This document shows positions 3,100 to 58,989 of a stretch of 64,000 bases of DNA, piece after piece; position 1 is the first letter of the stretch; each line of letters starts with the position of its first letter. A program made the position numbers and the translations under genes. The DNA lies in contig JAEOTR010000014.1 of the NCBI GenBank assembly GCA_016839705.1, forward strand, positions 32,001-96,000, read 5' to 3'. The notes under the pieces were generated by a model. It had not been told where the DNA came from, searched no databases, and saw only the letters and a list, made by a program, of their open reading frames with translations. Origin of the DNA: Promethearchaeota archaeon (GTDB taxonomy: Archaea > Asgardarchaeota > Lokiarchaeia > Sigyniarchaeales > SOKP01).

Positions 3100-4068
3100 T
3101 TATTTTTTGGGTTTTCTTTTAGTAATAATTACGTAAATGACTAATCCGGCAATGCAAGCTATTATTATTATTAAAATTAGATAAAATATCCAATCTGAGT
3201 TAACATTGATAAGTTGGAAAATAATAGTATCACTGACATTTCTAACCGCAAAAGACACCATAGTTCCTTTTTCTCCATATGATATTTCAACAGTATAATT
3301 CGTTTCACCTGAACGTTTAAAAATAAGTGTATTCCCCGTTGAGGATGCATTTTCACATCCAAGTTCATTAATTAAGTCCGTTAAATACTGAGTTCGTGGT
3401 GTTGCAATAGCTAATCCATTAAGGATTAACTGCCATAAAAACTCATCTGCCATTAGGTTAGGAAACGTATAACCTGAAAGTTGAATAGCCAAATTTCCAT
3501 TAAGCTCAGCCGCGATAGCATTATAATCATCTAAAATTGTTTTAACATCAGCAGGATCCTTAAATATTAACAGTCCCTCATTATAGCTAGGTTGTTCTTC
3601 ATGAGTCCCATCTGTGAAGTTCCAAACAGCGCGTACACCATACCATAGATTATAGGTATTCGTATAATTTTCATTAATCAATGTTTCGTTGAATCCAGCA
3701 GAATTCATGATGGTAAGTAGTATCACTAAGTCTTCTATATTGAAATGTTCCGCCATGATTAAAGTTGTTAAAATATCATAGGCTTCCCATGTAATATCAT
3801 TCCAACCTAGTATAGTTGTTCTACTCTTCGCTCCAGTAATATTTGCATCTCCCTCGAACCAGAAGCTTGGATTTGTGGATGAATTAACTGTAGACTTCCA
3901 CGCCGCATCATTGTATTGATTTACTAATAAATCATCAGTCCCTTTCGCTAGAGTCAATTGATAGTTTATACTAGCTGACACTGATATAGCAAACATCCCA
4001 CAAATTATTATTCCAAACAATGTTAAACTCAAAAAACTTGTTTTGGTTTTATTCTTAATTAGCCTCAT
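3100..4068 (-). CDS. Secreted, C-terminally membrane-anchored hypothetical protein
   Basis: N-terminal signal peptide, many N-x-S/T sequons, C-terminal hydrophobic helix followed by KRKPKK; last gene of the padR-ABC operon. Confidence 0.7.
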   Translation of the reverse strand: MRLIKNKTKTSFLSLTLFGIIICGMFAISVSASINYQLTLAKGTDDLLVNQYNDAAWKSTVNSSTNPSFWFEGDANITGAKSRTTILGWNDITWEAYDILTTLIMAEHFNIEDLVILLTIMNSAGFNETLINENYTNTYNLWYGVRAVWNFTDGTHEEQPSYNEGLLIFKDPADVKTILDDYNAIAAELNGNLAIQLSGYTFPNLMADEFLWQLILNGLAIATPRTQYLTDLINELGCENASSTGNTLIFKRSGETNYTVEISYGEKGTMVSFAVRNVSDTIIFQLINVNSDWIFYLILIIIIACIAGLVIYVIITKRKPKK

Positions 4069-56303: not shown

Positions 56304-57266
56304 TTATCTCTTAATTTTTTCAGGGAGATAAAAATCATAGGTTTTCTTAAGCAGTTTGGTTTTAATATACCTATCAATTCTCCTAGCATTTTGAAAGATT
56401 ACCCATATCAATTTATCACTCTTATAATATTTTTGTACTTCAATAAAAGTGATCGGGTCTAATTCAAATTCACTTGCTTCTTCTTTTAAGAATTTGTTAA
56501 CCCTTTTGATTAACCGAGGTATAATTTTCGGTAATTGTTCCTTAAAAAAGTTAGCAAGTAAGTCAATAATTACTAGCCTCAGGTCATAATAACGATCTAA
56601 TACATCTTGAATGAAAAATGCCTTTATTAGGAATCTTAAGAATGATGGTGTGCTATTTAAGAACAATTCTGCCTCCATTGCTTCCACACTATTTTTTCGA
56701 AGGAACGGGGTGCTGGTATCAAGATATAATAATCTAGAATTTTCATTTACAAAAGGGTTTTTTGCATCGTAATCTATTAAGACAAAATTAGAAATTTGAC
56801 CATCCAATCCTATTTCTATATCTTCTTTTTGCTTATTTAATGTCCATACTTTCTTAAATTCTCTTAAAACAAGTAAAACCAGTATTTCTACCTCATCATC
56901 GCTTACCTGGTGAATAATTTTGTTTCCAACAGATTCCGGATCAATTTTAGCTTGAACGCTATAAAACTGGATTTTTCCTTTATTATCTAAGAACCATATT
57001 ACTTGATGTTCTGGAAGAATCAAGCCAATCTGCTTCTCTAAAATCCTGCAATATTCATTGTACGCCCAAACATGCCTTCGAACTTGCTTTTCATTATCAA
57101 ATATTGGAATTCTTTTATAGGCTAGATGTTCTGGATCTCCAATAATTTCAAACACTAAACTCATTTCTCCAAATCCAAGTATTTTTATGGGGATTTTTCC
57201 TGTTTCTGGATGAATAGTGTCAATTGTTTTTTCAAATTCTTTTAACAATTCAATATTGATTTTCAT
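56304..57266 (-). CDS. DUF6206 / kinase-like fold protein
   Basis: LGFGEMS...AYKRIP, GLDGQISN, YLDTSTP. Confidence 0.65.
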   Translation of the reverse strand: MKINIELLKEFEKTIDTIHPETGKIPIKILGFGEMSLVFEIIGDPEHLAYKRIPIFDNEKQVRRHVWAYNEYCRILEKQIGLILPEHQVIWFLDNKGKIQFYSVQAKIDPESVGNKIIHQVSDDEVEILVLLVLREFKKVWTLNKQKEDIEIGLDGQISNFVLIDYDAKNPFVNENSRLLYLDTSTPFLRKNSVEAMEAELFLNSTPSFLRFLIKAFFIQDVLDRYYDLRLVIIDLLANFFKEQLPKIIPRLIKRVNKFLKEEASEFELDPITFIEVQKYYKSDKLIWVIFQNARRIDRYIKTKLLKKTYDFYLPEKIKR

Positions 57267-57395
57267 AAGCTATCAACTATTATTATGTAATCTCTCTCAA
57301 ACTTAGTTTATCATTATTTTTTTATGTTAATAAATGTTAATTAATTTCCCTCAATTTTACAAATAGGTTTATTTGAGACAGAACATTGCACTATT

Positions 57396-57482
57396 AGGAT
57401 ATTCGAATATGATGAGAATTGTGGCATGAGGAAAAAGATTTTTTCTATGATCATGGAGCAGAGATCTGAATTCGAATATCCT
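57396..57482 (+). ncRNA. Box C/D guide sRNA
   Basis: 13-bp perfect terminal stem AGGATATTCGAAT/ATTCGAATATCCT. Box C ATGATGA 57409-57415, D' ATGA 57426-57429, C' ATGATCA 57447-57453, D CTGA 57466-57469. Guides of 10 and 12 nt. Confidence 0.8.
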
Positions 57483-57492
57483 TATCTTCATT

Positions 57493-58989
57493 TTATTGAT
57501 TTTTTATTGAATAATTTTCTTCACGATCAAGAATTGTTTTAACCATACCATCTCTTTCTGATTCTTGTAGTCGTTGAATATATCTTTCCAGTTGATCCCT
57601 CGTATGGTATGGACCACCTTCTCTTAACACGGTTTTCATTGGGTCTTCATGATTTGGAAATTTCTCTAGCATTTCTTTATGCCATTTATCAAGAAACTTT
57701 AATCCATAACTTACAATTTGGGGTTTTTCATCTACCTTATTTTTTTTCATATGAAAATCATTTTCATAATCATATAGCATTAACTCGGGGAAATTCTTTA
57801 AACCGGTATGGTAAGTTTTGATTAGTGTCCAATTATCGAATCTTACAGTGCGTTGACAACTCCATGCATTCTGACTAATAACAAGGAAGTTCCTACCAAA
57901 CTTTTCATCAGCTTCAATATTTCTAAAGAAACTCTTTCCGTCCCAAAATTCAGGGACTTCCAATCCTAAACCTTCTATAATAGTAGCTGCTATATCAGAT
58001 TGATAAATTAGTGAATTGTATTCTGAATTCCATTTTTTTCTTGGCCACTTTATTATCATTGGGACTCTGTTGGTTATGGGACAAGCAGTTGCATGATCTC
58101 CATAAATGTTTAATTCTCCTTGATTTTCACCGTGATCAGAACTAACAATTATCATTGTATCTTCATAGGTACCTTTATCCTTAAACATTTCAATAATTTT
58201 TCCGATGTATTCATCTGCATATTTTATTCCCACATCATATCCATCAATCCATTGTTTGAAATCATTTAAATTTCTAATTTCATTAAGTCCCTTTAATCTA
58301 GGAAGCTCTGGGGGTGGTGTATAAGCAATAGTTCCAAATGGTTCACAAGCAGAATGAGGTCCGTAACTCCTTCTATGTTTATTTATGTCTTCTTGTTTTA
58401 GCCAGGAAGGTGCGGGTTCATTCTCAAAGGGATTTCCAAATCCCATTGGAGTTCGGTAGGGTGTGTGAGGGTCCCAGAAATTTACGTGTAAAAACCAATT
58501 ATCATTCTGCATATTTCCTTTTAACCATTTCTCTACATAAGGAAAAACTTGATCTGCTCTATCCATACCTCTAAATCCAGGATTATAGATTTCTTTCCAT
58601 CCAGAATAAAACCAAAAAGCAGAATGCCGTTCTGCGAAGGAAGATATAGAGACTGGATATAACTTTGCCCTTCTGAGCATACTGATCCAGTTATAACGTA
58701 AAAATTGATCTTGAAATCCTCGTGTATTACCAGTTAAACGTAAATCTGCAGCGGTCCCACCATGTCCGACAATACCAGAATGTATTCCAAATCGTCCCGT
58801 AAAAAGTGAGGCTCTTGATGGCAAACATGGGGCATCTGAAACATAACACTCTGTAAAAATTGTCCCTTCCATTGCAATTTTATCAATATTAGGTGATGTG
58901 TTGCGGTGGTACCCATAACACCCAAGATGATCAGGTCTTAAAGTATCAATATCAAGATAAAGAATTCTCATATTTCTAAGATAAAACAA
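57493..58989 (-). CDS. Formylglycine-dependent sulfatase (Cys-type)
   Basis: DTLRPDHLGCYG, CLPSRASLFTG, DPHTPY, SSDHGE, DH. Confidence 0.93.
   Translation of the reverse strand: MFYLRNMRILYLDIDTLRPDHLGCYGYHRNTSPNIDKIAMEGTIFTECYVSDAPCLPSRASLFTGRFGIHSGIVGHGGTAADLRLTGNTRGFQDQFLRYNWISMLRRAKLYPVSISSFAERHSAFWFYSGWKEIYNPGFRGMDRADQVFPYVEKWLKGNMQNDNWFLHVNFWDPHTPYRTPMGFGNPFENEPAPSWLKQEDINKHRRSYGPHSACEPFGTIAYTPPPELPRLKGLNEIRNLNDFKQWIDGYDVGIKYADEYIGKIIEMFKDKGTYEDTMIIVSSDHGENQGELNIYGDHATACPITNRVPMIIKWPRKKWNSEYNSLIYQSDIAATIIEGLGLEVPEFWDGKSFFRNIEADEKFGRNFLVISQNAWSCQRTVRFDNWTLIKTYHTGLKNFPELMLYDYENDFHMKKNKVDEKPQIVSYGLKFLDKWHKEMLEKFPNHEDPMKTVLREGGPYHTRDQLERYIQRLQESERDGMVKTILDREENYSIKNQ

Follow-up and report, generated by a model that had tools for sequence, protein, structure and literature searches.

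The window (the whole 64,000-nt stretch of DNA analyzed here) belongs to a 3.36-Mb MAG of a Promethearchaeota archaeon, which we call G000. Two genes on its minus strand, encoding a DUF6206 protein and a sulfatase, are separated by a gap of 226 nt, and an 87-nt element lies within this gap on the plus strand (positions 57396-57482). A preliminary description of the locus had placed here an intergenic box C/D RNA, antisense between two minus-strand genes, with perfect C and D boxes, a 13-bp stem, degenerate D′ and C′ boxes and an internal hairpin. We find this layout and this setting in full, with every part in place:

56304-57266, minus strand: DUF6206 open reading frame (ORF), flanking the sRNA on one side
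57368-57374, plus strand: TATA-like box TTTATTT, a putative promoter whose center lies about 26 nt 5′ of the stem start
57396-57408, plus strand: 5′ strand of the terminal stem, AGGATATTCGAAT, the canonical stem of the C/D kink-turn
57409-57415, plus strand: box C, ATGATGA, invariant in the 14 genomic copies
57416-57425, plus strand: D′ spacer, GAATTGTGGC, 10 nt, without a supported target
57426-57429, plus strand: box D′, ATGA, degenerate and drifting among homologues
57430-57446, plus strand: internal hairpin, GGAAAAA-GAT-TTTTTCT, 17 nt, connecting D′ to C′
57447-57453, plus strand: box C′, ATGATCA, degenerate and drifting among homologues
57454-57465, plus strand: D guide, TGGAGCAGAGAT, 12 nt, complementary to 16S rRNA, with C1383 as predicted target
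57466-57469, plus strand: box D, CTGA, invariant in the 14 genomic copies
57470-57482, plus strand: 3′ strand of the terminal stem, ATTCGAATATCCT, partner of 57396-57408
57491-57505, plus strand: T runs TTTT and TTTTTT, a possible archaeal oligo-T terminator overlapping the stop codon of the convergent sulfatase gene
57493-58989, minus strand: sulfatase ORF, flanking the sRNA on the other side

The strands AGGATATTCGAAT and ATTCGAATATCCT form a perfect 13-bp helix that directly encloses boxes C and D. The hairpin at 57430-57446 has seven pairs, one of them G-U, and a predicted energy of −1.7 kcal/mol. The sulfatase gene is convergent with the sRNA and its stop codon lies 10 nt past the 3′ stem strand (window 57483-57505). 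Its 3′ end probably runs antisense into the sRNA, with a T5 run on the minus strand within the hairpin. This convergent layout is restricted to three genomes (G000, G027 and G077), and the T runs downstream of the sRNA are kept in some homologues, not in all. The palindrome ATTCGAAT is present in both arms of the terminal stem (window 57401-57408 and 57470-57477), and in all 14 genomes the 5′ arm keeps its TTCGAA unchanged. This arm, ATATTCGAATAT, is self-complementary, which would permit pairing between two sRNA molecules.

The element folds at −27.9 kcal/mol (z = −3.9), and none of 200 shuffled sequences was as stable. Counting stems of 4 bp or more, a scan of the whole assembly for stem-flanked RTGATGA...CTGA arrangements gave 31 matches, and the reversed genome gave 3. 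The locus has the longest stem among them (13 bp, against 9 for the next) and is the sole match above 9 bp. No Rfam family matched the window at gathering thresholds; in a permissive scan, only eukaryotic C/D snoRNA models appeared, at sub-threshold scores of 15.8 to 18.6 bits against cut-offs of 35 to 38. A genome-wide census of C/D sRNAs by box pattern and rRNA complementarity (78 matches against 32 in the reversed genome) was dropped as too noisy, only a few of its loci being convincing. A look-alike on another contig of G000 (C32, 47703-47744) has no boxes and a coding-like sequence, and we regard it as a chance similarity.

Homologues of the sRNA occur in 14 of 53 Promethearchaeota genomes of the same genus, one copy in each. 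Three search methods agreed on this: BLAST, a covariance model trained on the first ten homologues, and exact matching of the D guide joined to box D. None of them detected the sRNA in the 98 genomes searched from the order's other genera. In 13 genomes, the pattern GGAGCAGAGAYCTGA has a single match each, while its reversed control gave no matches. Six further copies came from a metagenome scan; box C in these was fixed by the search pattern, so that the invariance of this box rests on the 14 genomes. One other metagenome match (L164) is GC-rich and unrelated, and was set aside as a chance hit. The homologues are 85, 86, 87, 91, 93 or 95 nt long. Their D guide is identical in 12 of the 14 genomes and differs by a single change in each of the other two, G003 and G076; the D′-C′ linker varies between 15 and 25 nt and drifts in sequence. 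Conservation of the boxes and the stem in relatives, a check named in the preliminary description, is what the alignment displays: boxes C and D are invariant and 12 stem pairs are kept in the 14 genomes. Conservation thus falls on the functional columns, those of the two boxes and the D guide, while the linker drifts, as predicted for a guide RNA. The flanking DUF6206 and sulfatase genes are common only to G000, G027 and G077; in three other clades, the sRNA is intergenic among different genes and in different orientations. Because gene neighbors differ between clades, the sRNA is conserved as a unit of its own.

The terminal stem also identifies the functional strand. Its 12 conserved pairs in 14 species include 4 with compensatory changes, and 91% of the cells in the stem alignment are paired, compared with 21 to 50% after displacement of the 3′ partner by 1 to 3 columns. 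Ten cells are G-U and would become A-C mismatches if the stem were read on the minus strand. Since these cells pair only on the plus strand, the plus strand is the functional one. The helix would juxtapose boxes C and D, and their sequences predict a kink-turn. Upstream, a T-rich TTTAT(T/C) box accompanies each of the 14 genomic homologues and the metagenome copies at about −31 to −21, despite differing flanks. The spacing, about 26 nt, is the one at which archaeal TATA boxes precede the transcription start. The RNA therefore probably starts at or near the first nucleotide of the stem. The great length of the stem may plausibly stabilize a helix rich in A+U, in a mesophile whose G+C content is about 30%. 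It may also mediate a stem-end contact between RNPs, of the kind proposed for the di-sRNPs of M. jannaschii (PMC5062973).

We searched the G000 MAG for rRNA and found none assembled, so the target of the D guide had to be read from congeners. We used their 16S and 23S rRNAs, including those of G077, which has both the sRNA and complete rRNAs. The D guide pairs with the 16S segment 5′-GUCUCUGCUCCU-3′ through 10 Watson-Crick pairs and one G-U pair next to box D. These 11 pairs are contiguous and the site is unique in 16S rRNA. The matching segment is identical in four congeners (G077, G063, G064 and G022) and in two genomes from another family of the order (G044 and G055). The duplex has an energy of −20.6 kcal/mol, which 2 of 654 shuffled guides equaled when searched against SSU plus LSU rRNA. 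The target stretch spans positions 1379-1390, of which 1379-1389 are complementary to the guide, and lies immediately 5′ of the decoding-center sequence UUGCACACACCGCCCGUC (E. coli numbering, taken from the gap-free E. coli row of the 16S alignment in the supplement of Dennis et al. 2015, PMC4644070). Counting upstream from box D, the fifth guide nucleotide forms a Watson-Crick G-C pair with C1383, in the canonical +5 geometry. This nucleotide sits in the small-subunit neck, at the point where the chain enters the 3′ strand of helix 28, near the decoding center. We predict that the D guide most likely directs 2′-O-methylation of 16S C1383. The suggestion in the preliminary description that this might be an orphan guide accordingly fails for the D guide, for which 16S GUCUCUGCUCCU and Cm1383 are predicted; the D′ spacer alone is left with no supported target.

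The guide is fitted to the rRNA of its own lineage. One of its A residues pairs with U1382, a position at which seven aligned archaea all have C (PMC4644070). Neighboring nucleotides are predicted sRNA targets in other archaea: judging from the sRNA sequences available in that source, Sac-sR118 and Iho-sR56 target U1380 and Neq-sR17 targets the equivalent of 1384, which makes the segment a known methylation hotspot. C1383 is not among the predicted sites read there for the seven archaea. The predicted modification is dispensable, as most genomes of the genus do without the sRNA despite having the same 16S site (for example, G064). One congener, G063, carries a relic (L077:1440-1530, on its contig C14) that retains the D guide, box D and the 3′ stem strand intact and has lost box C and the 5′ half. 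It represents a decayed copy, and a natural loss in a congener whose 16S rRNA retains the target sequence. A 16S gene on contig C18 of G028 (L049/L055) reads GUCCCUGC at the target and mismatches the D guide. On this short contig, the SSU and LSU genes are adjacent, while they are about 52 kb apart in G077. We set this gene aside as counter-evidence to the target, since the contig is probably mis-binned from another archaeon.

G000 encodes the proteins that a box C/D RNP needs. Fibrillarin (PF01269, 259.7 bits) and Nop5 (PF01798, 195.7 bits) are adjacent on contig C25, and two L7Ae-family genes are present (PF01248, two matches above the cut-off). Nop5 is the single Nop-domain gene, with no Nop56/Nop58 pair, so the machinery is of the archaeal type. 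The preliminary assignment to a box C/D guide on the plus strand is corroborated from several sides: conservation, covariation in the stem, strand-specific G-U pairs, the TATA-like box, and the genes for fibrillarin, Nop5 and L7Ae. We consider it likely that the element is a box C/D guide sRNA of a Loki-type Asgard archaeon, transcribed independently and directed at 16S C1383. Given the anatomy, conservation, strandedness, complementarity and protein genes described here, transcription, RNP assembly and methylation would proceed as follows. A TATA-type promoter belonging to the sRNA would start transcription at or near the first stem nucleotide. The terminal helix of 12 to 13 bp would then join boxes C and D as a kink-turn, to be bound by L7Ae and, subsequently, by Nop5 and fibrillarin. 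The 12-nt D guide would pair with 16S rRNA at the junction with the helix 28 3′ strand, 5′ of UUGCACACACCGCCCGUC, and fibrillarin would methylate the 2′-OH of C1383, opposite the fifth guide position upstream of box D. The hairpin-closed C′/D′ half would serve chiefly as a second protein platform, its 10-nt spacer being at best a weak second guide.

The spacer of the D′ half is 10 nt in all 20 copies and the D guide 12 nt, which departs from the symmetric spacers of about 12 nt expected of archaeal sRNAs. Tran and co-workers reportedly found in 2005 that archaeal sRNPs prefer a 12-nt spacing. Box D′ is ATGA, CTGA or TTGA in most homologues, and box C′ is ATGATCA, GTGATTT, TTGATGT or ATGATAA. 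Most copies thus fit NUGA for D′ and NUGAUNN for C′; the GA is lost from D′ in G076 (CTAA) and G072 (TTAA), and from C′ in G029 (ATAACTT). On the alignment, four basal pairs of the internal hairpin are predicted and show covariation (35/58, GC to AU; 36/57, UA to CG or GU). Across homologues, the hairpin is weak (−0.1 to −5 kcal/mol), with a loop that varies in length and sequence, and it is very weak and nearly absent in the G017-type clade.

The main competitor to a single functional guide is that the sRNA has a dual role as guide and chaperone. The D′ spacer, too, would bind 16S rRNA, so that the RNP would hold two distant segments while the small subunit folds and perhaps methylate a second C, a role proposed for sR17 of Nanoarchaeum on helix 28. 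The spacer is indeed partly constrained. Among the 14 genomes, it keeps a TGTGG core, a pyrimidine next to D′ and an A at position 8, with 4 of its 10 positions variable; the core reads TGTGA in two metagenome copies. When about 4,900 rRNA windows were ordered by mean duplex energy over all guide variants, two 16S sites took ranks 1 and 3. The first is the 530 loop, GCCGCGGUAA, with C528 as putative target; it forms 8 pairs with the spacer of G000 and 10 with that of G029, including three G-U pairs. Pairing there accounts for every conserved position of the D′ guide, but G-U pairs flank the target nucleotide. The other, GCACCACAAG (CCACAA), lies just 3′ of the 5′ strand of helix 28 and offers only 5 to 7 Watson-Crick pairs.

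The helix 28 site is attractive because of sR17 of Nanoarchaeum equitans, which is reported to bind both strands of this helix. The D guide of Neq-sR17, AAGGAGCAGGAA, pairs with the same 16S segment (1380-1391), GUCCCUGCUCCUU, and its D′ guide, UAUUGUGUGCUU, which resembles the D′ spacer described here (AUUGUG), is reported on the opposite helix 28 strand (PMC4644070; PMC7994747). The two sRNAs nevertheless differ. Their registers are one nucleotide apart (the equivalent of 1384 in N. equitans, 1383 here), Neq-sR17 is compact and has no long stem, and its D′ complementarity is extended, compared with the 5 to 7 pairs at that site here. Convergence on a hotspot is as possible an explanation of their likeness as homology.

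Against a second rRNA contact, the best D′ match was equaled or beaten by 17% of 296 column-shuffled guide sets, so neither candidate site is statistically supported. Mismatch scans of rRNA found no site that pairs consistently with all variants of the D′ spacer. A bulged pairing with GC(A)CACA at 1392-1398, noticed by eye, was rejected, as it comprises only 6 bp and is sterically doubtful. Nor did the spacer find a target among the 12 tRNAs of the G000 MAG (the reliable set; aragorn calls made in intron mode were spurious). The spacer is only 10 nt long, and the D′ half as a whole drifts, in its D′ box in two genomes, in the C′ box of G029 and in the TGTGA core of two metagenome copies. We therefore rate the dual role as distinctly unlikely. 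We conclude that the D′ half is mainly a second protein-binding platform and at best a weak guide.

Less probable still is a box C/D RNA that does not methylate and uses its complementarity for binding alone, either as a factor in pre-rRNA folding or processing or as an antisense regulator. Box C/D RNAs of this kind occur in eukaryotes (U3, U8 and U14) and provide a general precedent. The gene is lineage-restricted and has been lost in G063, and in G000, G027 and G077 it faces the sulfatase gene in convergent orientation, reaching into the likely 3′ end of that gene. However, that overlap is missing in other clades, so antisense regulation cannot explain the conservation of the sRNA, and the D guide has precisely the geometry that is canonical for methylation, a Watson-Crick G-C pair occupying +5. 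To the notion that the locus is no RNA gene at all, being instead a DNA palindrome bound by protein, a terminator hairpin, a miniature transposable element or a small ORF, we give next to no credence: inverted repeats flank the element, its stem arms contain the TTCGAA palindrome and a 40-codon minus-strand ORF overlaps it (window 57369-57491), but its single copy per genome argues against a mobile repeat, its ten stem G-U cells would turn into A-C mismatches if read from the other strand or in minus-strand DNA hairpins, its conserved blocks coincide with the strand-specific C/D boxes and guide, its conservation extends across differing gene contexts, and the ORF is ruled out as a gene because length differences among homologues break its reading frame.

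As a guide sRNA directed at C1383, the element shares much with the 489 archaeal box C/D sRNAs compiled by Dennis et al. 2015 (PMC4644070). It has a box C of the form RUGAUGA, a CUGA box D, a 12-nt D guide with its target 5 nt upstream of box D, a target within a conserved core region of 16S rRNA and internal C′/D′ boxes, together with a single Nop5, fibrillarin and L7Ae. It differs from them in its terminal stem of 12 to 13 bp, whereas the RNA-seq-defined sRNAs of seven archaea that we compared from that compilation carry only a few flanking nucleotides (PMC4644070). Its spacers are 10 and 12 nt instead of 12 and 12, its C′/D′ boxes are degenerate, its D′-C′ linker of 15 to 25 nt is hairpin-capable where a short K-loop is usual, and its length is 85 to 95 nt compared with about 50 to 70 nt. 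The long stem, the stem-closed C′/D′ motif and the asymmetric spacers are unusual for archaea.

Other C/D-like loci of G000 help to separate family traits from those of the genome. On contig C13 (85231-85294, plus strand), the order GTGATGA, 11-nt spacer, ATGA, 20-nt linker, TTGATGA, 11-nt spacer and CTGA is found, and its guides form 10 contiguous pairs each, with LSU rRNA (near position 3218 of G077) and SSU rRNA (near position 37). This is a convincing second box C/D sRNA, one with two guides. It differs from the sRNA studied here in having no terminal stem, 11/11-nt spacers and rRNA matches for both guides, and the two have a long linker in common. Because the C13 sRNA has no terminal stem, the long stem sets the present family apart and does not characterize the genome in general. 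The long D′-C′ linker may be a habit of this lineage. A further locus on contig C49 (53842-53904, plus strand) has ATGATGA and CTGA boxes, a 9-bp A/U-rich terminal stem and a C′-like box, ATGATTC. The scan found no rRNA match for it, and it may be another long-stem sRNA or a product of chance.

Several of the traits that set the element apart from archaeal sRNAs are those of eukaryotic C/D snoRNAs: a terminal stem adjoining boxes C and D, degenerate C′/D′ boxes joined by an internal stem, unequal spacers and effectively one functional guide. The differences lie in the proteins, as there is no Nop56/Nop58 pair from which an asymmetric RNP could be built, in the putative promoter of its own, where snoRNAs are intronic or polycistronic, and in the stem, which exceeds their usual 4 to 6 bp. 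We know of no eukaryotic methylation at the equivalent 18S position (about C1684 in human). The earlier impression of a snoRNA-like RNA consequently stands for its architecture (the long stem, the degenerate C′/D′ boxes, the 15- to 25-nt linker and the 10/12 spacers) and falls for its proteins, with a single Nop5 and an archaeal-type set.

The locus is a genuine, lineage-restricted box C/D sRNA gene, which founds a new family of a known kind. Taken alone, it is a routine gain in annotation that leaves existing knowledge of C/D RNAs unchanged. Its build departs from the compact archaeal norm toward that of snoRNAs. To our knowledge, only archaea and eukaryotes have box C/D guide RNAs, and no known group is closer to eukaryotes than the Asgard archaea; the literature that we searched yielded no description of Asgard C/D sRNAs. 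The locus makes a prediction that can be tested, namely that a defined subset of one genus has Cm at 16S position 1383; the related genomes that have no copy of the gene provide natural controls. It could also be that this Asgard C/D RNA has shifted toward a snoRNA design, with effectively a single guide, both kink-turns closed by helices, unequal spacers and a relaxed C′/D′ half on a symmetric archaeal Nop5 dimer, a reading that we hold to be rather unlikely. If it is true and other Asgard C/D RNAs are alike, the snoRNA architecture would predate the duplication that gave rise to Nop56 and Nop58.
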